From Syntrophomonadaceae bacterium (GTDB lineage Bacteria; Bacillota; Ch66; Ch109): a stretch of DNA of 61,741 nt. A model generated the notes under the pieces. That model was given only the letters and a program-made list of their open reading frames with translations. It made no database searches and had not been told where the DNA came from. A program made the translations under genes and the position numbers. The stretch is from contig JAAYQE010000140.1 of assembly GCA_012519455.1 (NCBI GenBank), positions 1 to 61,741 of the forward strand, in the 5' to 3' direction. Shown here in pieces: positions 6,759 to 61,741 of the stretch. The number at the start of each line of letters is the position of its first letter. Position 1 is the stretch's first letter.

Positions 6759-7802
6759 GTGATAAAGAAAAAATTAACCGAATTAGTTAAAGCTTCAGGA
6801 TGAGCGGCTAAAGTGGGTCCGGGGACCCTGGAAGGAATTTTAGAAAAGTTACCGGTTTTCGATTGTCCTCAGGTATTAGTTGGACTGAATCAACCCGATG
6901 ATGCCGGGGTTTATCAATTGAATGCCGAGACCGCTTTAATTCAGACCGTAGATTTCTTTACCCCAGTCGTAGATAATCCCTATCTTTTTGGCCAGATAGC
7001 TGCAACGAATGCTTTAAGTGATGTCTACGCTATGGGCGGTCAACCTTTGACGGCCCTAAATATCGTTTGTTTTCCGACCGATTGTCTGGACCTCGAGGTA
7101 CTAGCTCAGATCCTGGCCGGCGGGGCAGAAATAGTGCAAAGGGCCGGAGCGGTAATCCTGGGGGGACATACCGTAGAAGATGCCGAGCCCAAATATGGCT
7201 TGGCCGTGACCGGTATAGCTCATCCTGAACGGATTATTACTAACCAGGGAGCGCGGCCAGGAGACTTATTGGTATTAACTAAACCCCTAGGGACCGGAGT
7301 GATAATTACCGCGGTTAAAGGGGAAGTTCTAACCGAAGCAGAGATTAGCCCGGCTTTAGCATCGATGCTTACACTTAACCAAAGCGCCAGTGAGGCAATG
7401 CAAGCGTGGGGTGTACGCGGGGCTACGGATATAACCGGTTTTGGATTATTAGGACATGCTTTGGAAATGGCGCAGGCTAGTCGTTGTACGATAGAGCTGT
7501 GGATAGATAAAATCCCCTGGCTGCCTGGGGCTCGGGAGATGGCTGGTATGGGTTTAGTGCCGGCCGGGGCGTATGCTAATCAACACTACCTTAATGGCAA
7601 GTTGGAGTTTCTTGGGAGCCTCTCAGAAGCAGAGAAAGATTTATTGTTTGATCCGCAAACTTCCGGGGGTCTGCTCATCGCCATTGCGGAAGCTAAAGTA
7701 GAAGGTTTAGTTGACCACTTAAAGCTTAGAGGAGAAACCGCCTGGATTATTGGGAGGGTTTGTCAACCGGGTGATTATTCAATCCGCGTACATGGAGTTT
7801 AA
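6759..7802 (+). CDS. selD: Selenide, water dikinase (selenophosphate synthetase); selenoprotein with Sec at UGA 6801-6803
   Basis: GTG 6759 after RBS GAAGGGGGTG is in frame: MIKKKLTELVKASG-U-AAKVGPG. UGA sits at the catalytic Cys position (SGxAAK). Also QTVDFFTP, GGHT and DPQTSGGLL motifs. Confidence 0.95.
6815..6828 (+). promoter_or_regulatory. Bacterial SECIS hairpin for selD Sec codon
   Basis: GGGTC-CGGG-GACCC stem-loop with a G-rich apical loop, starting 12 nt after the UGA. Confidence 0.7.
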
Positions 7803-18703: not shown

Positions 18704-19792
18704 ATGTCCTCAGGACAATTTTTAAAAGATATACAAGGGAAAATAGCCAATCAAGAGCGTTTAAGTCGGGAAGACGGATTAGCCCTTATGTGCCATCCTG
18801 ATCTTTTAAGTATAGGAAAGTTGGCTCGGCAGGTAAAAATACAAAAAACCGGTAAACAAGTATTTTTTAATCTAAATTTTCATATAAACTTGACCAATGT
18901 TTGCGCCTCCCGTTGTAAATTTTGTGCTTTTGGTCGTGATCAGGCAGATGAAGGATCCTATACAATGACTTTAGAAGAGGTGTTAAAGGAAGCCGAATAC
19001 GGGGTGGCCACCGGAGCTACCGAGCTGCATATTGTTAGTGCCTTACATCCGGCTTTGCCTTTTGATTATTATGTAGAAATAATCCAGGGCTGTAGAGATA
19101 AATTTCCCTCGGTGCACCTTAAGGCCTTTACCGCCGTAGAAATTGATTACTTTAGCCGTATTTCGGGACTTTCCCTGTCTCAAGTCTTAACCCGCTTAAA
19201 AGAAGCTGGTTTAGGTTCCTTACCTGGGGGAGGAGCGGAAGTATTTAGTTCTCGGGTACGCAGTCAGCTATGTCCCAATAAAGCGACCGGGGAACGATGG
19301 TTGGAAGTAATGCGTACGGCCCATGGTTTAGGCTTAAAAAGTAATTCGACTATGCTCTACGGGCAGATTGAAACGGTTGAAGAAAGGATTGATCATCTAC
19401 TGACTTTACGTCAACTGCAAGATGAAACTGGTGGTTTTCAATCGTTTATCCCCTTGCCGTTCCATCCGGAAAACACGCAGATTCCCCATCTTAAGCGAAC
19501 GACTGCTTATGAGGATTTAAAAGTGATGGCCGTATCCCGTCTGCTTTTAGATAACTTTGACCATATTAAAGCTTATTGGATTATGTTAGGTATCCCGGTA
19601 GCCCAACTTTCTTTAGCGTTTGGAGCGGATGATTTAGACGGGACTGTGGTCCAAGAAAAAATAACCCATGCGGCCGGCGCACGTACAGCCGAGGGGATAA
19701 CGCAAAAAGAACTCCTCCCCTTAATTCGCGAGGCGGGTTATATCCCAGTAGAACGAGATACTCTGTATAATACGCTTAAGGTCTATGCTTAA
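18704..19792 (+). CDS. mqnE: Aminofutalosine synthase (radical SAM)
   Basis: CxxxCxxC (CASRCKFC), HLKAFTAVEI, HIKAYWIMLG, GADDLDGT. Confidence 0.9.
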   Translation: MSSGQFLKDIQGKIANQERLSREDGLALMCHPDLLSIGKLARQVKIQKTGKQVFFNLNFHINLTNVCASRCKFCAFGRDQADEGSYTMTLEEVLKEAEYGVATGATELHIVSALHPALPFDYYVEIIQGCRDKFPSVHLKAFTAVEIDYFSRISGLSLSQVLTRLKEAGLGSLPGGGAEVFSSRVRSQLCPNKATGERWLEVMRTAHGLGLKSNSTMLYGQIETVEERIDHLLTLRQLQDETGGFQSFIPLPFHPENTQIPHLKRTTAYEDLKVMAVSRLLLDNFDHIKAYWIMLGIPVAQLSLAFGADDLDGTVVQEKITHAAGARTAEGITQKELLPLIREAGYIPVERDTLYNTLKVYA

Positions 19793-19850
19793 GTATCGCA
19801 TAACTTATTCAACTATTTTAACACTATATTAAAGGAAGGAGTCAAGCAAT

Positions 19851-20681
19851 GTGCGTCCTCGAGTTGGCCATATCCAGTTTATAAACTGCTTACCTTTATA
19901 TTACGGTTTGGTAAAAAAAGGGGTGCTTTTAGATGTTGAACTAACTAAAGGTACGCCTACCGAATTAAATCAGTATTTGATCCGGGGTGAACTAGATATT
20001 AGCCCTATATCCTCGATTGAATACGGGCGGCATGCGGATGAGTTGTTGCTTATGCCGGATTTAACCGTTAGTGCGGACGGTGAGGTCCGCAGTATTTTAC
20101 TTTTAAGTAAAGTACCGATAGAAGAATTGGAAGGAAGAACGATTGCCTTAACTAATACTTCAGCTACTTCTCAGGCCCTTTTACAGATTTTGTTACAAGA
20201 AAGGTTTGGCTTAAAATGCCACTTTTTTGTTAGTCCCCCGGAATTAGGCTCCATGCTCTTGGAGGCTGATGCCGCTTTATTAATCGGGGACCCTGCATTA
20301 CGCGCGTTTTATCAACCGCGTCAAGGTCTGTATAGTTATGATCTAGGGACGGTTTGGAAAGAGTTTACCGGGTTGCCAATGGTCTTTGCCGTATGGGCCG
20401 TACGGCGTGAATATGTGCATAAACATAAAGATTTGGCGATGGAAGTTTACCATGCCTTCCACCAATCGATGCAGTTTAGTTTAGAACACCTGGATGAAGT
20501 AACGACTAATGCCTCTCGCTGGGAAACGCTCGATAAGGAACTGCTTCGTCAGTATTTTGCCTGTCTACAATTTACCTTTGATGAACAAAAAAAGGCCGGC
20601 TTAGAAAAGTTTTATTTTTATGCCCATCGTTATGGATTTTTAAGTAAAATCCCGGCTATAAAATTTATGAACCACGATTAG
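19851..20681 (+). CDS. mqnA: Chorismate dehydratase
   Basis: HIQFINCLPLY, TSATS, LLIGDPAL, DLG..W..FTGLPMVFAVW. Confidence 0.9.
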   Translation: MRPRVGHIQFINCLPLYYGLVKKGVLLDVELTKGTPTELNQYLIRGELDISPISSIEYGRHADELLLMPDLTVSADGEVRSILLLSKVPIEELEGRTIALTNTSATSQALLQILLQERFGLKCHFFVSPPELGSMLLEADAALLIGDPALRAFYQPRQGLYSYDLGTVWKEFTGLPMVFAVWAVRREYVHKHKDLAMEVYHAFHQSMQFSLEHLDEVTTNASRWETLDKELLRQYFACLQFTFDEQKKAGLEKFYFYAHRYGFLSKIPAIKFMNHD

Positions 20682-20732
20682 CAATTACTAAATTACTATT
20701 AGAGATAACTTAGAAGGGGCGGTATACTATTT

Positions 20733-21800
20733 ATGAATGGTTTGCAAAACCTGCTACAGGAAACCGTAGATGGTCGGCGTTTATCATCTTCTGAAGCGCT
20801 TGAACTAATGGAAAAAGGCGATTTGCTTGATCTGGGGCAGGCTGCTAATCAGATTGTACAAAAAAAACATCCAGCTAACCAGGTTACTTTTGTGATTGAT
20901 CGTAATATTAACTATACTAATATTTGTATTAGCCGTTGCCGTTTTTGCGCCTTCTATCGGGAAAGGCATGATCAGGAAGCTTATGTATTAACCCAGCGCG
21001 AGATATTTGAAAAAATTGAAGAGGCCATAGCACAAGGCGCGACGCAAGTGATGCTCCAGGGAGGGCTGCACCCGGATTTGGGTTTAGATTATGTCGTTCA
21101 GATGGTAAATGATATTAAAGCCCGGTATAATATTACCATTCACTCTTTTTCACCACCGGAGATTTTTCATTTCGCGACCATTTCCAATGTTTCCATTCGT
21201 ACGGTACTACAAAAATTATCCGAGGCGGGTTTAGATTCCTTACCTGGTGGGGGAGCTGAAATACTTGTGGACCGGGTAAGAGACATAATTAGTCCTCACA
21301 AAATAACCGCGAGTCAGTGGCTAGAGGTGATGGAAACCGCTCACTATGTCGGATTAGCTTCTACGGCGACCATGATGATTGGAACGGTGGAAACGAGAGA
21401 GGAACGAATCGATCATTTAGAAAAAATACGCAGTTTACAAGAGCGAACCGGCGGTTTTAGAGGGTTTATACCCTGGACTTTTTGCCCGGAGAATACCGAT
21501 TTAGGCGGCAGTCATGTTTCGGCTCTTGAGTATTTACGGATGCTGGCGATAGCTCGGTTGTATCTAGATAATGTTAATCACATTCAGGGTTCTTGGGTTA
21601 CGCAAAGTCCAGCGATAGGCCAATTATCTCTTCTTTTCGGCGCCGACGATCTGGGAAGTATTATGTTAGAGGAAAATGTAGTCCGGGCGGCCGGTTGCGA
21701 GTATCGATTAAACCGAGACGAAATGATTCGTTTAATTCGCGAAACGGGTAAAATTCCGGCTCAAAGGGATACTACTTATTCTATTTTAAAAGTATTTTAA
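20733..21800 (+). CDS. mqnC: Cyclic dehypoxanthinyl futalosine synthase (radical SAM)
   Basis: DRNINYTNIC..RCRFC, QGGLHP, HSFSPPE, SIMLEENVV. Confidence 0.92.
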   Translation: MNGLQNLLQETVDGRRLSSSEALELMEKGDLLDLGQAANQIVQKKHPANQVTFVIDRNINYTNICISRCRFCAFYRERHDQEAYVLTQREIFEKIEEAIAQGATQVMLQGGLHPDLGLDYVVQMVNDIKARYNITIHSFSPPEIFHFATISNVSIRTVLQKLSEAGLDSLPGGGAEILVDRVRDIISPHKITASQWLEVMETAHYVGLASTATMMIGTVETREERIDHLEKIRSLQERTGGFRGFIPWTFCPENTDLGGSHVSALEYLRMLAIARLYLDNVNHIQGSWVTQSPAIGQLSLLFGADDLGSIMLEENVVRAAGCEYRLNRDEMIRLIRETGKIPAQRDTTYSILKVF

Positions 21801-31423: not shown

Positions 31424-32665
31424 TTACCGCTTATAGAGCCCCTGATGTAAAAGTTGAATTGGGTGCAGGACGGGATAATTCAAACCGCTTTCACGCAGTC
31501 CGTAGCTTAATTGCGTTATACAACTAGGACAACAGGTCGCTACGGCCTGGGCTTCGGTTTGTCGTATATTATTAATTTTTGCCTCTAATATTTTCATGGA
31601 TACCTCGTAGTGCGTTAAACCAAAAGTTCCAGAACCTCCACAGCAAGTATCTGCTCCCGCCATTTCTTTCAATTCTACCCCCGGGATACTCTTTAGGAGT
31701 TGACGGGGTTGATCTTTAATTTTCTGCGCTTTTACTAAATGGCAAGGGTCATGATAAGTAACCGTCAAAGGATGAGGCAGGGCTCGTATTTCCGAAGGTA
31801 TTCCCAAAACCTCCACGATAAAAACCGAAAGATCAAATACTTTAACCTTTAACCAATCCTTATAAAGATGACCTTTAAGGGTAGAAGTGCAAGAGGCGCA
31901 ATCACTAATTACCGCATCTACGCCTAACTTATGCAATATATTAACGTTATGCTGCACCAGTTCTTCAGCGATCTTTTTCTGTCCATTAGCCAGGTGAGGG
32001 ACCCCACAACATTTTAGATTTGGCGAAACCACTACTTCACACCCCAGATGATTGAGGACTTCTACGGTAGCTAGTGCCACCTTCGGTTGTAAGAGGTCCG
32101 TGCCACATCCAAGGAAGTAGGCTACCCGAGTTTTACGGGTACCTTTGGCTGGGGAAACGGTTTTTATTCGAGTGCGGGCTGAGGCACGGGGAATTTTACC
32201 CAGAATTTTTTCCGCTTGGGGTAAATCTCCGGGAAGGATACTGGTCATACCCAGGGCCCGGGCTATATTACGAAAGCCCAGGCTATCCGCGAGGCCAGCG
32301 GCGGCTACCGCTTTACGTAGCAATCTTGGATTCGTCCATAGTTTGCCAAAGATAAGGTCTTTACCGGCCGAGGGACGTTGCTCTCCAATATAGGCCCTGG
32401 CCGCAGCTACTAGTTCCGGAACCGGAATACCCGAGGGACAGGTGCTGGAACAGGATTCACACATCAGGCAGTCACTAGCTTTAGCCGCTACTTTTTCAGA
32501 AACTTCAAGTTCTCCGTCCCGTAACATTTGGACTAAAAATACCTGGCCACTAGGAGAGTAATTTTCGGTTTGGTAAACCTGGAATATAGGACAGACACTA
32601 CGACATTTACCACAACGAACGCATTTTTTAATTTGCTCTCGTACTACCGGTGTATCCTTAAACAC
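31424..32665 (-). CDS. GlcF-like Fe-S subunit (2x[4Fe-4S] + CCG domains)
   Basis: CVRCGKCRSVCP, CLMCESCSSTCP, CCG and YHDPCHL motifs. Confidence 0.9.
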   Translation of the reverse strand: MFKDTPVVREQIKKCVRCGKCRSVCPIFQVYQTENYSPSGQVFLVQMLRDGELEVSEKVAAKASDCLMCESCSSTCPSGIPVPELVAAARAYIGEQRPSAGKDLIFGKLWTNPRLLRKAVAAAGLADSLGFRNIARALGMTSILPGDLPQAEKILGKIPRASARTRIKTVSPAKGTRKTRVAYFLGCGTDLLQPKVALATVEVLNHLGCEVVVSPNLKCCGVPHLANGQKKIAEELVQHNVNILHKLGVDAVISDCASCTSTLKGHLYKDWLKVKVFDLSVFIVEVLGIPSEIRALPHPLTVTYHDPCHLVKAQKIKDQPRQLLKSIPGVELKEMAGADTCCGGSGTFGLTHYEVSMKILEAKINNIRQTEAQAVATCCPSCITQLSYGLRESGLNYPVLHPIQLLHQGLYKR

Positions 32666-32668
32666 TAA

Positions 32669-34108
32669 TTATTCCTCCTCTGGGCCAAAGACTTTGCCTG
32701 GATTCATGATTCCTTTCGGATCAAGGGTTTGTTTGATACTTCGCATAATCTTAACCGCAGCTCCGTGTTCTAATTCGGCATACATGGCCCTTACGGCCCC
32801 TACCCCATGCTCCCCGGTGGTGGTTCCACCTAATCTCACCGCTAAACGATGGATATCATCAACCAGACGCTGGGCTGCTTCTACTTCCTGTGGTTGTTCC
32901 GGATCAATCACTGGGGCTGTGTGTACGTTTCCATCACCAATATGCCCATAGTTTACAACCTTAATGTGGTGTTTTTTCCCTAAAGCGCGAATTTCTCGTA
33001 GGGTTTCGGCCACCTTGGAAAGCGGGACACTAATATCTTCGCCAGCAAAAACCCGACTCCCGTCTGGACGTACTCGAGCCGCGGCGGTAGCGACCACGCT
33101 ACGACCTTCCCAAAGGTCCGCCATCCGTTTCGGGTCTGTAGCCCACTCGACCTGGGTTGCCCGTTGAGAAGCAATCTCTTTTATTTTTAATCCTTCCCAT
33201 TCGACGCTAGCCGGATTGCCATCAACTTCAAAAAGCAGGATAGCTTCAGCATTAGGTAAGTTAATTTCTGCTCGGTACATATTAACGGCTTGAATCGCCG
33301 ATTGGTCCAGAATCTCAATTCCCGACGGAAGTATTCCTGCCTTATACACCTCCAATACCGAGGCCGGCGCATCATCCAGAGAAGGATAAACCGCCATTAC
33401 AATACCTCGTCCTTTAGGTTTAGGCCATACTCGTAATCTTATTTGCGTAATGACCCCTAGAATACCCTCAGATCCGACAAATAGTTTAGTTAGATTTAGG
33501 CCGGAAACACTTTTTACCGCTCGAGATTGCATACCGCCGGTGATAATTATTTCTCCGTTCGGTAATACCACTTCCAGTCCAAGAATATATTGTTCTGTAC
33601 AGCCGTATTTAACTGCGCGTAGGCCGCTAGCGTTATTGGCAACCATTCCTCCAATAGTACACATCAGAGAACTGCCTGGATCTGGAGGAAAAAACATACC
33701 ATTTTCAGCCAGGCGTTGGTTAAGTTTAGCATGAATCACGCCGGGACGTACAAAAACTTGCATGTTAGCCACATCAACTTCTTCGATAGTATCCCAGGGA
33801 GATAAGTCCATCACGATTCCCCCTTGAATAGCTACCGAGCCACAGGTTTCACCCGTACCAGCACCTCGGGGGGTAACTGGAATATTATGGGTATATGCTA
33901 GTTTCATTACCTCCGAAACTTCTTCCGTAGAGCGAGGCGTTACTACGACGTCTGGCATAAATCGATTTAAACGAGCATGAAAAGAGCTATCGTAAGAATA
34001 ATACATAAGATCTACTTTATCCGAAATAACTTTTTCTTGACCTAGTTTTTTCTCTAATTCTTGGATAAGGAGGGTACGATCCATAATTATACTCTGCACC
34101 TCTTTCAA
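32669..34108 (-). CDS. GlcD/D-lactate dehydrogenase-like FAD-linked oxidase
   Basis: PRGAGTG, IGGMVANNASG, GSEGILG, GHIGDGNVH, GEHGVG and MNPGK motifs. Confidence 0.92.
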   Translation of the reverse strand: MKEVQSIIMDRTLLIQELEKKLGQEKVISDKVDLMYYSYDSSFHARLNRFMPDVVVTPRSTEEVSEVMKLAYTHNIPVTPRGAGTGETCGSVAIQGGIVMDLSPWDTIEEVDVANMQVFVRPGVIHAKLNQRLAENGMFFPPDPGSSLMCTIGGMVANNASGLRAVKYGCTEQYILGLEVVLPNGEIIITGGMQSRAVKSVSGLNLTKLFVGSEGILGVITQIRLRVWPKPKGRGIVMAVYPSLDDAPASVLEVYKAGILPSGIEILDQSAIQAVNMYRAEINLPNAEAILLFEVDGNPASVEWEGLKIKEIASQRATQVEWATDPKRMADLWEGRSVVATAAARVRPDGSRVFAGEDISVPLSKVAETLREIRALGKKHHIKVVNYGHIGDGNVHTAPVIDPEQPQEVEAAQRLVDDIHRLAVRLGGTTTGEHGVGAVRAMYAELEHGAAVKIMRSIKQTLDPKGIMNPGKVFGPEEE

Positions 34109-36060: not shown

Positions 36061-38205
36061 ATGAAAAAGAAGCTTGGTGAAATATTGTCGTCTCGGAATA
36101 TTGTTTTACATTCCAACCAAACCATAAATGAGGGGCGAGAAATACTAATTGCCAATCAACTAATCGCCGCTCCGGTTGTAGATGACCAGAAAGAAATCGT
36201 AGGGGTTGTAACCGAGGGAGAGCTTATTCAAGCCAAAAATGTCGATCCGGATGAGCCGATCACGTTATTGATGAATAAGGATTGGAGTGCGGTTTCTATT
36301 AACGTTAATCTGGAAGTAGCCTTAAAAGCTGGGGGCTTTTGGATTGTAGCGGTTGATGAGCATAAAACACCTATTGGTGTTCTCTCTAAGTATGAATTAG
36401 TAGACGCGGTGATCGAGGTTTTTGATACCACTTTAAAACGTCTGCATACGGTTATGGACTCCGCTCATAATGGGATTATCGCCTTAGATAAGGATGGGCT
36501 TATTACCCATTATAATTCAGCCGCGGAGGTTATGTTTGGCTTTCCCCAGGATAAAGCGATTGGAAGGCATATTAAAGAGGTTGACCCGGAAAGTACCTTA
36601 ATGGACGTGGTGCAGACCGGGCAGGCCCAAATGGTACAAAAAAGAAAGCTGCCCCAAGCGATAATTCTTACTAACCGGCGTCCGATCTTGCGCAATGGTG
36701 AAATCATTGGGGTAGTGGCAGTATTCCAGGACTTATCCGAAGTAGAAGCTGCGCATAATGAATTACGCTCAGTTCAAGCCTTAAATCATGAGTTGGAAAG
36801 TATCCTAAAGTTTTCTCACGATGGACTGGCCATCTGTGATGGACAAGGAAGGTTTTTAAGAGTAAGTCCTAGTTTTAGTAAATTATTGGGTATACCTGAT
36901 GAAGAATTGACTGGTCGGGCTGTTTCCTCTTTATCCGAAGAAGGTCAATTAATCCTTTCCGTTATTCAGGCGGTGATAAATCGTCGGGCTCCGGTTTCCA
37001 TGACCCAAAATACTTCTAGTGGACAGCAAATTTTAGCTACCAGTGTTCCGGTTTTTGATGAACTGGGTCAATTAGTACGCGTAGTAACCAATTTACGCGA
37101 TATGACCGAACTGAATGATTTGCGTGAACAGGTACAACAAACTAGTGAATTAAGCCGGCGTTACCTACACGAATTAGAAGAATGGCGGGCCCGTTTTGTC
37201 GCTACTTCAGAAGTAATTGCTTCTAGTGAGACTATGCAACGCGCAGTGGAGTTAGCTTTACATGTGGCCAAAGTCGACTCTACGGTATTAATCACCGGAG
37301 AATCCGGGGTAGGCAAACAGGTTATTGCCAAAATGATTCACCGGGTAAGTCCCCGACGGGATGGACCATTTATTGAAATAAACTGTGGGGCTATTCCCGA
37401 GACTTTATTGGAGTCAGAATTATTTGGATACGAGCGAGGAGCTTTTACCGGAGCGGCCCGGGAAGGCAGAACGGGAATTTTTGAATTAGCCAATAACGGC
37501 ACCTTGTTACTAGATGAAATCGGGGAAATTCCCCTTAATTTACAAGTAAAACTGCTCCGAGCTATTCAAGAACAGGAAATATACCGGGTAGGAGGAAGTC
37601 AAGCGATTAAGCTAAATGTTCGTATCATCGCCGCTACCAATAAAAACCTTTGGCAGATGGTACAGAATCGCCAATTTCGTGAAGATCTATACTATCGCCT
37701 CAATGTAGTTCCCATGGAAATCCCACCCCTGCGTAAACGTAGAGATGATATCATTCCGCTTACGAATCATTTTTTAAAATTATGCAATGATAAGTACGGC
37801 TTTAACCGGCATTTAGAGCCGGAAGTATATCAGGTTTTTGAAAGATACAATTGGCCAGGCAATGCACGGGAATTACAGAATTTAGTGGAAAGGTTGGTAG
37901 TTACTTGTAACGCCGATATTATCACCGAAAAACATTTGCCTGCTTCCATGTCGAAAAAGAACTTGGGAAGTCCACAGCCGGTAAAAGTTTTCGGGTTAAC
38001 CACGCTTAAAGAAGCGGGAGAAATTGTCGAAAAGGAACTGGTGACCCGAGCGTTGCGGGCCGGGAAAAGTACTCGCCGCGCCGCTGAATTATTAGGCGTA
38101 ACGCATTCCACGGTTATTCGTAAATTGAAGCAGTATAACATCACTCCTGGAACTCAATCATACCAGAATGGAACAGAAGTATACCAAGCCGTTAAAGACG
38201 ACTAA
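36061..38205 (+). CDS. Sigma54-dependent transcriptional activator (CBS pair-PAS-PAS-AAA+-HTH)
   Basis: GESGVGK, ESELFGY, GAFTGA, LLLDEIGE, REDLYYRLNV, WPGNARELQN; TyrR-like C-terminal HTH; CBS-like and PAS-like N-terminal segments. Confidence 0.93.
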   Translation: MKKKLGEILSSRNIVLHSNQTINEGREILIANQLIAAPVVDDQKEIVGVVTEGELIQAKNVDPDEPITLLMNKDWSAVSINVNLEVALKAGGFWIVAVDEHKTPIGVLSKYELVDAVIEVFDTTLKRLHTVMDSAHNGIIALDKDGLITHYNSAAEVMFGFPQDKAIGRHIKEVDPESTLMDVVQTGQAQMVQKRKLPQAIILTNRRPILRNGEIIGVVAVFQDLSEVEAAHNELRSVQALNHELESILKFSHDGLAICDGQGRFLRVSPSFSKLLGIPDEELTGRAVSSLSEEGQLILSVIQAVINRRAPVSMTQNTSSGQQILATSVPVFDELGQLVRVVTNLRDMTELNDLREQVQQTSELSRRYLHELEEWRARFVATSEVIASSETMQRAVELALHVAKVDSTVLITGESGVGKQVIAKMIHRVSPRRDGPFIEINCGAIPETLLESELFGYERGAFTGAAREGRTGIFELANNGTLLLDEIGEIPLNLQVKLLRAIQEQEIYRVGGSQAIKLNVRIIAATNKNLWQMVQNRQFREDLYYRLNVVPMEIPPLRKRRDDIIPLTNHFLKLCNDKYGFNRHLEPEVYQVFERYNWPGNARELQNLVERLVVTCNADIITEKHLPASMSKKNLGSPQPVKVFGLTTLKEAGEIVEKELVTRALRAGKSTRRAAELLGVTHSTVIRKLKQYNITPGTQSYQNGTEVYQAVKDD
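38148..38186. promoter_or_regulatory. Putative enhancer (UAS) pair for promoter 1
   Basis: TGGAAC-N6-ATACCA at 38148 and 38169 (21 bp apart), inside the activator's 3' end. Confidence 0.6.
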
Positions 38206-59572: not shown

Positions 59573-59740
59573 ATGGATAGCCACAGAGCACAGGAGATAA
59601 TTGATTCCTTAGGGGTAATTGAAGTGCGGCACCAAGGGGCTTCGGTCTGGATTGAACAGGTAGATAATAATGAAGCAGAAATCCGTTATTTGCATAGTGG
59701 TCGCCAAACCCGGGTACCGGTTCAGGAATTAACCGAGTAG
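59573..59740 (+). CDS. sspH: H-type small acid-soluble spore protein (55 aa), not in ORF track
   Basis: MDSHRAQEIIDSLGVIEVRHQGASVWIEQVD...VPVQELTE matches the SspH pattern (RA.EI..S...I.V.Y.G.PVWI...V...L.E); AAGGAGAGG RBS; upstream CATTATA resembles a sigmaG -10. Confidence 0.82.
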   Translation: MDSHRAQEIIDSLGVIEVRHQGASVWIEQVDNNEAEIRYLHSGRQTRVPVQELTE

Positions 59741-59818
59741 ATCTTTATTTCAAGCTGTTCTCCGGATACGGTATATATCTCCAAACCCCGAATATTTTAG
59801 ATAAGGGGTGAGGAAAAA

Positions 59819-60766
59819 ATGACCCGGGAAGAGTTTTATCGCGTTACCCGTTCTCTAACCGGCCCAGAATATTTGGCGCAAACGCTCTACTCTCTTCGAG
59901 ACCTTTACCGCGCGCGGCCGGGACAAAAGATACCCGTAGTATGGATCGAGGTTGGGGGTTGTGGGGGAAACACCATTTCTTTACTTAATGCCGTGGGTCC
60001 GGATTTGAACCAAATTCTCGGTAATTTAATTGACCTGCGTTTTCAGAATACTTTAATGTGGGCCGAAGATGATGAGGCCTTAAGGATCTTAAAAAGAACT
60101 ACCGAAAATCCGCAGGGTTTTTTACTCCTGGTCGAGGGTGCTATCGCGCGTCGGGATCAGGGTAAATATAATTTTGTAGCTATAGGTAACCGGAAAATTT
60201 TGACCGGAGCCAGCTTGGTGGCCGAAATAGCCCCTCGTGCCTTAAATATTATAGCCGTAGGAACCTGTGCTTCGTTTGGCGGGCCTACGGCGGCCAGTCC
60301 TAATCCCTCTGACAGCGTAGGGGTAGGCAATTTTTTGGGCCGAAAAGTAATCAATGTTTCCGGCTGTCCTGCACATCCTGATTGGATTGTGGGCACTTTA
60401 GCCCATTTATTACTGTTTGGGGAGCCCGAAGTCGATGAATTTGGGCGTCCTTTACTTTTTTACGGGGAAACAGTACATCGGCGTTGTACCCGGCGCTCCT
60501 TTTTTGATCGTCGCCTTTTTGCCCAAAAGTTAGGCGACACCGAATGCATGTTTAAATTGGGCTGTAAAGGCCCTTTAACGCATGCCGATTGCCCGCAGCG
60601 CCAGTGGAACTGCTATGTAAACTGGCCGGTAAAAGCTAATACGCCCTGTATTGGTTGTACAGAACCAATCTACCCGGATGGTATGGAACCCTTTTTCCAA
60701 CCACCTTTTCCCCTAGAAGAAGAAGGTGGATCAGAGGAGGATAAGGAAAGGGGGGGCCGGCCATGA
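59819..60766 (+). CDS. [NiFe]-hydrogenase small subunit (no Tat signal; CGGN proximal motif)
   Basis: WIEVGGCGGNTISL, VGTCASFGG, SGCPAHP, HRRC, CMFKLGCKGP, PCIGC. Confidence 0.9.
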   Translation: MTREEFYRVTRSLTGPEYLAQTLYSLRDLYRARPGQKIPVVWIEVGGCGGNTISLLNAVGPDLNQILGNLIDLRFQNTLMWAEDDEALRILKRTTENPQGFLLLVEGAIARRDQGKYNFVAIGNRKILTGASLVAEIAPRALNIIAVGTCASFGGPTAASPNPSDSVGVGNFLGRKVINVSGCPAHPDWIVGTLAHLLLFGEPEVDEFGRPLLFYGETVHRRCTRRSFFDRRLFAQKLGDTECMFKLGCKGPLTHADCPQRQWNCYVNWPVKANTPCIGCTEPIYPDGMEPFFQPPFPLEEEGGSEEDKERGGRP

Positions 60767-61741
60767 AAACATCGCCACCAGATTCACGATCACCTTCCAC
60801 AACCAACCGAGGGGGACGGAAAATATCCTTAAGCCCGATTACCCGCAGCAGCGGCCCCTTGAGTATTCAGGTAGTAGTAAACCAGGGCCGGGTGGTTAAT
60901 GCCCAGGTGATTGGTGGGCTGTTTCGGGGATACGAGTTGATTATGGTCGGACGCGATCCTTTTGATGCTACATACCTTACGGAAAAAATCTGCGGCATTT
61001 GTTCTACTGCTCACGCTATGGTATCCAGTTTAATGCTAGAAGAACTATATTTCACCGAGGTACCGCCGAACGGGTGGATAATCCGAAATTTGATGCTCGG
61101 GGCGGAATTTTTACAAAATCATTTACGTCATTTTTACTTTTTAGAGTTACCCGATTATCTTCAGGGACCCACCTGCTTTCCTTTTATCAATCCAGGTGGC
61201 CGGGATTATCGTTTCTCTCCTAAAGTAAATGAGCGTCTATTAAATCACTATTATGAAGCGGTAAAAGCGAGCCTTTTAGCTCATGAATTACTCGCCCTTT
61301 TTGGCGCAAAAGTACCGCATGCGCATGGCTTAGTGCCTGGTGGTGCTACGGTAGAACCTCGCGCGGATCTGATTAATAAGTTTGGTGCAGTTTTAGCTCA
61401 GATACGTCACTTTATTGACACCTGCCTGCTGCCCGATACCGAATTACTAGCCGAAACTTATGCGGATTACTTTCAAATTGGCCAGGGTCCGGGTAATTTT
61501 CTTTCTTATGGAGGCTTCTCCAGAGGAAAAGAGGAATACCAGATACCAGCCGGCGTAATTCTAGGTGGAGAATGGCAGCCTTTGGACCTGGATAAGATAA
61601 CGGAATCCGTTGAATATAGCTGGTTTCGGAAGCAACCGGCAAAAAGGGTTACGGACTTAGAGGCTGTAAAGCAACCGGAGTCGAATAAACCAGGAGCCTA
61701 CACCTGGGTGATTGCGCCCCGCTACGCTGGACAAGTGATGG
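60763..61741 (+). CDS. [NiFe]-hydrogenase large subunit-like, N-terminal part (runs off window; not in ORF track)
   Basis: ATG overlaps the small-subunit stop (ATGA). Hand translation gives PITRSSGPL, LFRGYE, GRDP, EKICGICSTAH, LQNHLRHFY, GAKVPHAHG..PGG, ESVEYSWF, AYTWVIAPRY. Confidence 0.88.
   Translation, partial: MKTSPPDSRSPSTTNRGGRKISLSPITRSSGPLSIQVVVNQGRVVNAQVIGGLFRGYELIMVGRDPFDATYLTEKICGICSTAHAMVSSLMLEELYFTEVPPNGWIIRNLMLGAEFLQNHLRHFYFLELPDYLQGPTCFPFINPGGRDYRFSPKVNERLLNHYYEAVKASLLAHELLALFGAKVPHAHGLVPGGATVEPRADLINKFGAVLAQIRHFIDTCLLPDTELLAETYADYFQIGQGPGNFLSYGGFSRGKEEYQIPAGVILGGEWQPLDLDKITESVEYSWFRKQPAKRVTDLEAVKQPESNKPGAYTWVIAPRYAGQVM

Follow-up and report, generated by a model that had tools for sequence, protein, structure and literature searches.

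The 61,741-nucleotide contig JAAYQE010000140.1 of a Syntrophomonadaceae bacterium (GCA_012519455.1; positions 1 to 61,741, hereafter the window) ends inside a two-gene operon, which, as judged from profile matches and a structural model, is predicted to encode a [NiFe]-hydrogenase heterodimer with a large subunit of the group 1 fold. The small-subunit gene (59819-60766, +) is followed by the large-subunit gene (from 60763, +), whose ATG shares four nucleotides (ATGA) with the preceding stop codon; 60763-61741 (+) is one open frame of 326 codons that runs past the window end. In the large subunit, the Asp, Glu, and His residues of the canonical proton-relay motif are all replaced. This change marks an enzyme lineage of hundreds of Bacillota hydrogenases and is not a one-off defect. 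The features of the operon are as follows.

59819..60766, + strand: small-subunit gene, 315 amino acids, complete (PF01058, 6.7e-27; PF14720, 1.5e-31; 4kl8_S, 1.5e-63)
59819..59836, + strand: MTREEF, apparently a decayed twin-arginine translocation (Tat) motif with no hydrophobic h-region after it (relatives with Tat read M(L)TRREFLKL)
59957..59971, + strand: GCGGN, proximal cluster, with the second Cys of CxxC read as Asn (aligns to GCTGC of 4kl8_S)
60260..60658, + strand: other Fe-S ligands, all kept: GTC and GCP (proximal), HxxC..C..C (distal), C..NWP..CxxC (medial, Pro type)
60763..61741, + strand: large-subunit gene, first 326 of 473 codons (PF00374, 1e-57; 2wpn_B, 2.7e-70)
60763..60822, + strand: N-terminal low-complexity extension MKTSPPDSRSPSTTNRGGRK, 20 amino acids (residues 1-14 with a predicted local distance difference test score, pLDDT, below 50 in the P0001 model)
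60832..60861, + strand: SPITRSSGPL in place of DPxTRxEGHL, relay Asp, Glu, and His gone (alignment to 2wpn_B)
60916..60918, + strand: Gly52, present throughout the subclade where most relatives have Thr or Ile (counterpart of Gly50 in the D. vulgaris [NiFeSe] enzyme by alignment)
60985..61014, + strand: L1 motif KICGICSTAH, with Cys77 and Cys80 as Ni ligands, Ile79 at the gate of the gas channel, and Lys75 for the usual Arg (alignment)

The family assignment of the large subunit is well above the Pfam threshold (nickel-dependent hydrogenase, 196.7 bits against a cut-off of 25.8). The part within the window matches the [NiFeSe] large subunit of D. vulgaris Hildenborough (2wpn_B), and the best PDB matches of the large subunit, with E-values of 1e-103 to 1e-106, are likewise [NiFeSe] enzymes; the small subunit matches that of the Dm. 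baculatum [NiFeSe] enzyme (4kl8_S). An AlphaFold2 model of a 97% identical copy (P0001) reached a pLDDT of 89.5 and a predicted template modelling (pTM) score of 0.90. It superposes on [NiFeSe] and [NiFe] large subunits with template modelling (TM) scores of 0.87-0.92 (0.92 to 5jsk_B), at 38% structural-alignment identity to the [NiFeSe] match of the D. vulgaris/Dm. baculatum type.

In canonical enzymes, the carboxylate of the motif Glu takes the proton from the terminal Cys, and every mechanistically dissected [NiFe]-hydrogenase uses this Cys-Glu pair in proton-coupled electron transfer (PMC11212049). In the window enzyme, residues 25-33 (PITRSSGPL, 60835-60861) pair with PVTRIEGHL in an ungapped HMMER alignment, which bears out the preliminary description of this DNA, where the Glu had been read as replaced. 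Relative to the canonical motif the substitutions are Asp24 to Ser, Glu30 to Ser, and His32 to Pro, together with Arg75 to Lys in L1. The KICGIC sequence, also described earlier as an L1 motif retaining both Ni-binding Cys residues, pairs with RICGVC (residues 75-80, nucleotides 60985-61002). The low-complexity N-terminal extension is present as described and is largely predicted to be disordered; its length varies from 0 to about 40 residues in relatives.

The small subunit carries a three-cluster Fe-S relay with all ligands except the second proximal Cys. According to an alignment of 4kl8_S with 21 relatives, GCTGCS of the Dm. baculatum enzyme corresponds to GCGGNT in the window; the second proximal Cys is Asn or Asp in every Glu-less relative examined, and GCGGN is conserved in the subclade to which the window enzyme belongs. 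Groups 1f, 2a, and 1h have also been reported to carry Asn or Asp there (PMC5364354). The N-terminus, MTREEFYRVTRSLTGPEY, contains neither the RR pair nor a hydrophobic stretch. As small subunits of the subclade begin with TREEF or NREEF where Tat-bearing relatives read MLTRREFLKL, the MTREEF sequence is probably the remnant of a Tat signal, whose loss would point to a cytoplasmic enzyme. P0077, the nearest neighbour of the Glu type, has both a Tat signal and a canonical GSCSGCS motif.

Integrity of the genes and metal ligands

The large-subunit gene was recovered in full from two metagenome contigs in ENA (L001 and L002), which both encode a small-subunit protein identical to that of the window as well as the whole large subunit. 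It encodes 473 amino acids without interruption and ends in SFDPCLYCATH-VLQV-stop. The C-terminal L2 motif, noted earlier as lying outside the window, is thus DPCLYCATH followed by VLQV, and it reads the same in an NCBI contig from a third assembly (L083), the source of the P0001 copy. RSSGP and KICGIC are found alike in all three contigs, which come from different studies. The ratio of nonsynonymous to synonymous substitution rates (dN/dS, Nei-Gojobori) is 0.14 for the large subunit (L001 vs L083), 0.21 for the pair L003 and L004, and 0.08 for the small subunit (vs L083). Both genes are intact and under purifying selection.

A sequencing artefact or a decaying pseudogene, two possibilities raised in the preliminary description, can accordingly be dismissed as having a negligible probability: apart from the fact that the window alone ends before L2, no support for either was found, whereas the codon readings at both motifs agree in three assemblies, the 473-residue frame is free of frameshifts and retains L2, dN/dS stays at 0.14-0.21, and the variant is conserved across the subclade. 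In a long-read metagenome-assembled genome (MAG), the small-subunit gene of one relative (L003, 8969-9950) is split by a frameshift, and fragmentation also affects ABC-transporter genes of that assembly. Short-read contigs (L090, 6562-7467, and L091) encode this protein intact, and the split is probably an assembly indel error rather than a sign of a pseudogene.

All four Ni/Fe-binding cysteines are kept: Cys77 and Cys80 of L1 within the window, and Cys463 and Cys466 of DPCLYCATH in L001, L002, and L083. The active-site Arg396 (EVPRGG), the L1 His, and the Glu of the RGxE motif are invariant in a subclade that has diverged to 54% identity. Taken with the fold and the purifying selection, these conserved ligands and the Arg residue speak for a functional metalloprotein. 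In the same three contigs, the first L2 position is encoded by a Cys codon, with no UGA, which rules out a selenoenzyme.

The window does contain a gene for selenide, water dikinase (SelD, 6759-7802, +) with an in-frame TGA at 6801-6803 (motif KASG*AAK). A mechanically derived list of open reading frames (ORFs) starts this gene only at 6813, and a selenocysteine-containing SelD is probable. The in-frame TGA implies that the organism decodes selenocysteine, yet its hydrogenase uses Cys. The same gene, an AIR-synthase-like ORF, was considered as a candidate for the maturation gene hypE and rejected on account of its identity as SelD.

The Glu-less lineage and the subclade of the window enzyme

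The preliminary description had called the TR(I/V)EGH motif near-universal, which turned out to be overstated. In a clustered-protein search covering 5.8 billion proteins, 2414 matches at E <= 1e-20 were obtained among 8000 candidates scored. The Glu is missing in 118 of the best 120 homologues and only two read EGH; the motifs include TRLSGLL (49), TRxNGFW (24), TRANNSC (13), and other similar ones. When 1.84 billion cluster representatives were searched exhaustively with HMMER, 299 matched at E <= 1e-30. The site is covered in 129 of the best representatives at 50% identity; Glu is found there in 85 of them, Ser in 16, Asn in 11, and another residue in 17, so that 44 of the 129 lack the Glu.

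The pattern extends to species-level genomes. A scan of one genome per GTDB species, in which the window's species is not represented, yielded 548 relatives, the nearest of which has a large subunit 67% identical to that of the window. The best 80 were examined and include members of Clostridium, Bacillus, Heyndrickxia, Sporomusa, Pelosinus, Pelotomaculum, Thermincola, Heliorestis, and Tepidanaerobacter. The Glu is missing in every readable locus, i.e., about 70 of these 80 (the automated reading failed in the rest). Most Glu-less loci of the Clostridium/Bacillus type have a protease motif about 1.4 kb downstream and hypF, hypC, and hypD motifs within 7 kb, all identified at the motif level only. 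As the loss of the Glu is common in relatives with their own maturation genes, it is a trait of the lineage and not a lesion of the window gene. The presence of such genes beside Glu-less relatives also argues that the lineage makes real NiFe sites.

In a comparison of 71 intact Glu-type sequences with 120 intact Ser/Asn-type sequences (65 Ser, 55 Asn), only three columns switch cleanly between the two groups: Asp24 to Ser, Glu30 to Ser or Asn, and His32 to Leu, Phe, or Gln. The Asp, Glu, and His of DPxTRxEGH are therefore replaced as a block across a large clade. The Glu-less group has gained conserved polar residues at Tyr71, Ser81, Asn119, Arg122, His188, and Asp347, and has Ile between the L1 cysteines. 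The second position between the L2 cysteines (x2) is occupied by a hydroxyl residue in 54 of 65 Ser-type and 27 of 55 Asn-type sequences, as compared with 6 of 71 Glu-type ones. No compensating carboxylate that arises wherever the Glu is lost was found in this comparison; E339 and E420 are specific to the subclade of the window enzyme.

In a neighbour-joining tree, the window enzyme and eight other clusters at 90% identity (P0001-P0009, one of them a fragment; 54-97% identical) are monophyletic, and groups with TR[IL]SGLL motifs are their sisters. Members of the subclade come exclusively from metagenomes and MAGs labelled Syntrophomonadaceae or Bacillota, and runs from biogas, anaerobic digesters, sludge, and landfill contain the sequence. 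Within the subclade, the motif reads TR(S/G)(S/C)G(Q/P/L). The loss of the Glu is thus conserved among homologues, as the preliminary description had proposed to check for the RSSGP/KICG pair, while the Lys of KICG is present in only 4 of 9 members, and the exchange of Arg for Lys in L1 looks neutral.

Two further traits distinguish the subclade. L2 reads DPCLYCA(T/A)H followed by exactly four residues in 9 of 9 members. Gly52 and Tyr465 are both invariant, and this pair, present in all nine members, occurs in no other sampled lineage; position 465 is Ser in most Ser-type relatives. Tyr465 aligns with Gly491 of the D. vulgaris [NiFeSe] enzyme, in which G50 and G491 are described as near neighbours of the active site within a hydrophilic channel that leads to the surface (PMC7497094). 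PDB entries that name variants at these positions are 6rtp (G50T) and 6ru9/6ruc (G491A/S).

Other branches of the superfamily show further departures. The sister clade with the large-subunit motif TRLSGLL includes sequences from Sporomusa, Pelosinus, and relatives (L019, L023, L027, L031, L033, L049, and L057) as well as from Pelotomaculum and Pelosinus (L022 and L028). Several of its large subunits stop exactly at the L2 His, its small subunits read DSGDNN, with both N-terminal proximal-cluster cysteines lost, and no adjacent hyp or protease genes were found. This hydrogenase seems to be altered further still and may be sensory. The gas-gate pair seen most often among Ser-type relatives, Ile/Phe, is that of H2 sensors. 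In 'group 1a' enzymes of the Calderihabitans type (P0042 and P0127; L009, L013, L032, and L051), the motif is TR(I/V)H(E/Q)P; some of them have the Glu one position later than usual, preceded by His, which may represent a shifted relay. Six of the 50%-identity representatives (P0162, P0169, P0198, P0200, P0241, and P0242) have lost the L1 and/or L2 cysteines and cannot bind NiFe.

Genomic context and possible functions

The surroundings of the operon reveal little about its function. In seven independent contexts of the subclade, Pfam annotation identified no hyp, protease, cytochrome b, or kinase genes within 5-10 kb, and no conserved partner is shared among them. The neighbours are unrelated housekeeping genes that vary from sspH with UPF0180, an ABC transporter with TetR and SIR2, EPSP synthase with glutamate dehydrogenase, and CheW with ACPS to PAS-GGDEF with HD-GYP genes. 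Motif and Pfam scans covering about 40 ORFs of the 61.7-kb window revealed no protease or cytochrome b genes either. The gene for an H-type small acid-soluble spore protein (sspH, 59573-59740) lies 78 nucleotides upstream of the operon with no predicted terminator in between. Its co-transcription with the hydrogenase is possible, and the two are neighbours only in the species of the window.

Traces of the operon occur in metatranscriptomes: a 172-nucleotide contig identical to 61273-61444 in two of them, both from one study, and in a third a 239-nucleotide contig that matches 59712-59950 with one mismatch, spanning the 3' end of sspH and the start of the small-subunit gene. These are compatible with low-level transcription.

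Elsewhere in the window, an MqnA-like gene (PF02621) lies between two radical-SAM genes of the CofH/MqnC type (18704-21800, +), which points to the futalosine pathway and to an organism that makes menaquinone. An FAD-linked oxidase and a CCG/4Fe-4S protein form a pair resembling glycolate/D-lactate dehydrogenase (31424-34108, -), near which a CBS-PAS sigma-54 activator is encoded (36061-38205, +).

The explanation favoured here, with slightly better than even confidence, is a cytoplasmic, protease-independent [NiFe]-hydrogenase with a rerouted proton path. It would be a soluble heterodimer of a Bacillota lineage that dispenses with the canonical Cys-to-Glu proton relay. The enzyme would bind a normal NiFe(CN)2CO site and turn over H2, presumably more slowly than Glu-containing enzymes. 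Since canonical enzymes are strongly impaired when the Glu is replaced (PMC11023054), another proton exit would be needed if Glu-less enzymes turn over. Protons might leave the terminal Cys463 by a different route, likely the hydrophilic channel at Gly52 and Tyr465, with a hydroxyl group (Ser or Tyr) and water in place of the carboxylate. The proximal cluster may be held by three Cys residues and Asn, and a soluble redox partner could dock at the His-ligated distal cluster. Because the large subunit extends only four residues past the L2 His and no protease gene is close by, its maturation probably involves no endoproteolysis, in line with sensory and Ech hydrogenases, the known exceptions to C-terminal processing (PMC6769069).

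Several observations weigh against this explanation. Exchange of the Glu for Gln or Ala in canonical enzymes cuts activity greatly (PMC11023054). The putative proton route through Tyr465 and Gly52 is derived from sequence alignment, not from distances, and Tyr at position 465 occurs also in two Glu-containing lineages, combined with Thr at position 52, which weakens Tyr465 as a general substitute for the Glu. No hyp gene was detected within the window by the same scans. The hyp set is incomplete in five of the eight clostridial acetogens that have such an enzyme (PMC9431212), and under three conditions HupSL, the member of the lineage in C. acetobutylicum, was not expressed and not detected (PMC4669385). 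The transcriptomic traces amount to three short contigs for which DNA carry-over is possible. In the open-access literature, neither a paper noting the natural loss of the Glu or characterizing a Glu-less member nor biochemical data on any such member were found.

A slow-turnover H2 sensor or regulatory hydrogenase, which would bind H2 at a normal NiFe site and serve a signalling role owing to poor proton exit, appears unlikely, though it accounts for a number of features. The lack of a Tat signal and the presumed cytoplasmic location fit this role, as do the absence of accessory or respiratory partner genes, the low apparent expression, and the Ile residue at the gas-channel gate in CGIC; the second gate residue, however, is Leu127 and not Phe. 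Almost no C-terminal extension is present, as in sensory hydrogenases (PMC6769069), and sensory [FeFe] enzymes with altered proton paths are very weakly active (PMC11023054). One locus of the subclade sits among PAS-GGDEF-HD and HD-GYP genes, but no signalling gene (histidine kinase, response regulator, or other) is conserved beside the pair in the seven contexts. Moreover, the small subunit has a short acidic tail at its C-terminus and no kinase-docking extension, and the nearest relatives belong to group 1, not group 2. Of the preliminary description as a whole, the altered yet intact [NiFe]-hydrogenase large subunit stands, while the sensor or scaffold role suggested there is possible but unsupported, with no signalling partner linked in the seven contexts.

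Still more doubtful is a hydrogenase-like protein that is not matured to a NiFe enzyme here, i.e., a conserved redox or scaffold protein, or a usually silent enzyme in need of maturases encoded elsewhere; it is less likely than a working NiFe enzyme. The absence of hyp and protease genes from both the subclade contexts and the window would fit such a protein, as would the often incomplete hyp sets of clostridial acetogens with related enzymes (PMC9431212). Some distant representatives without Ni-binding cysteines indicate that drift of this kind occurs in the superfamily. On the other hand, hyp genes are commonly unlinked to structural genes. The four metal-binding Cys residues, the Arg of the PRG motif, the L1 His, and the RGxE Glu are invariant down to 54% identity, and a dN/dS of 0.14 also speaks against an unmatured protein.

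A broader proposal, advanced only tentatively and with less than even confidence, is that the Glu-less Bacillota hydrogenases form a mechanistically distinct class, in which a proton route through the G50/G491 channel, with the hydroxyl of Ser or Tyr beside the terminal Cys, would stand in for the whole Asp-Glu-His relay and be coupled to an Asn/Asp-ligated proximal cluster. The subclade of the window enzyme might then be its minimal form, free of both protease and Tat signal and acting in the cytoplasm as an enzyme or as an H2 sensor.

Automatic annotation routinely labels the mostly Bacillota lineage that lacks the whole Asp/Glu/His motif as 'group 1a periplasmic uptake hydrogenase'; many of its members have no Tat signal and a non-Cys proximal ligand, yet possess dedicated maturation genes. 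If active, these enzymes would constitute a second natural solution to proton transfer at a NiFe site, with a bearing on mechanism and enzyme engineering, and annotations that equate group 1a with periplasmic H2 uptake would be unreliable in digesters, gut clostridia, and acetogens. The subclade, as the most stripped-down form (two genes and no processing tail), is convenient for heterologous study.

Comparison with known hydrogenases

The nearest named relatives of the window enzyme all belong to group 1a: the [NiFeSe] enzymes, C. acetobutylicum WP_010890826.1 (39% identity), and Calderihabitans Hyd-1a (PMC9431212, PMC7306483). Automatic filing by nearest neighbours would presumably assign it to HydDB group 1a, although it has none of the Tat signal, the cytochrome or membrane partner gene, and the extension of about 15 residues with an endopeptidase that characterize this group.

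Closest in both sequence and structure are the [NiFeSe] enzymes of D. vulgaris (HysAB; 2wpn and 5jsk) and Dm. baculatum (1cc1 and 4kl8). They share with the window enzyme a compact large subunit of about 480 residues, the L1/L2 architecture, the PRG Arg, and Gly at the position of G50. The window enzyme differs in having Cys for selenocysteine, replacements of the Asp, Glu, and His of DPVTRIEGH, and Tyr for Gly491. Its small subunit has CxxN rather than CxxC, a Pro-type medial cluster, and no Tat signal, and a four-residue tail stands in place of the cleavable extension of the large subunit.

The HupSL (MbhSL) enzyme encoded on pSOL1 of C. acetobutylicum ATCC 824 (CA_P0141-0142; WP_010890826.1) belongs to the same Glu-less lineage. 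Its large subunit reads DPITRISGFL ... DPCVSCATH followed by 14 residues (L092, 4096-6844), and it served as the HydDB group 1a best hit in an independent study (PMC9431212). Both enzymes have CGIC, a hydroxyl residue at x2 of L2, a small subunit without Tat signal, and Asn in the proximal motif (GCSGN and GCGGN, respectively). The C. acetobutylicum enzyme, unlike that of the window, has a 14-residue C-terminal extension, with annotated maturation protease and cytochrome b5-domain genes downstream; it also retains the Asp of DPxTR and differs in having Ser at x2 and no Gly52 signature. Its annotation as a 'periplasmic uptake' hydrogenase is doubtful. The preliminary description had allowed for a known subgroup sharing the altered motif, and the lineage that includes this HupL is such a group. 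The anomaly is genuine, but it extends across the lineage, long-known sequences included, and is not a unique event.

Regulatory HoxBC of Cupriavidus necator (group 2b) resembles the window enzyme in being a cytoplasmic, soluble heterodimer core without a cleavable extension and with Ile between the L1 cysteines. The Glu is presumably retained in group 2b. The window enzyme is not phylogenetically close to it and has no linked histidine kinase or response regulator in the seven contexts. Its gas-gate residues (positions V74/L122) are Ile79 and Leu127 and not Ile/Phe, the pair present in the TRLSGLL sister clade. A functional analogy is offered by the putative sensory [FeFe]-hydrogenases HydS of Thermotoga maritima and Thermoanaerobacter mathranii, which have a natural non-prototype proton chain and very low, irreversible activity (PMC11023054); unlike the window enzyme, they belong to an unrelated family with a different cofactor and carry PAS or other signalling domains.

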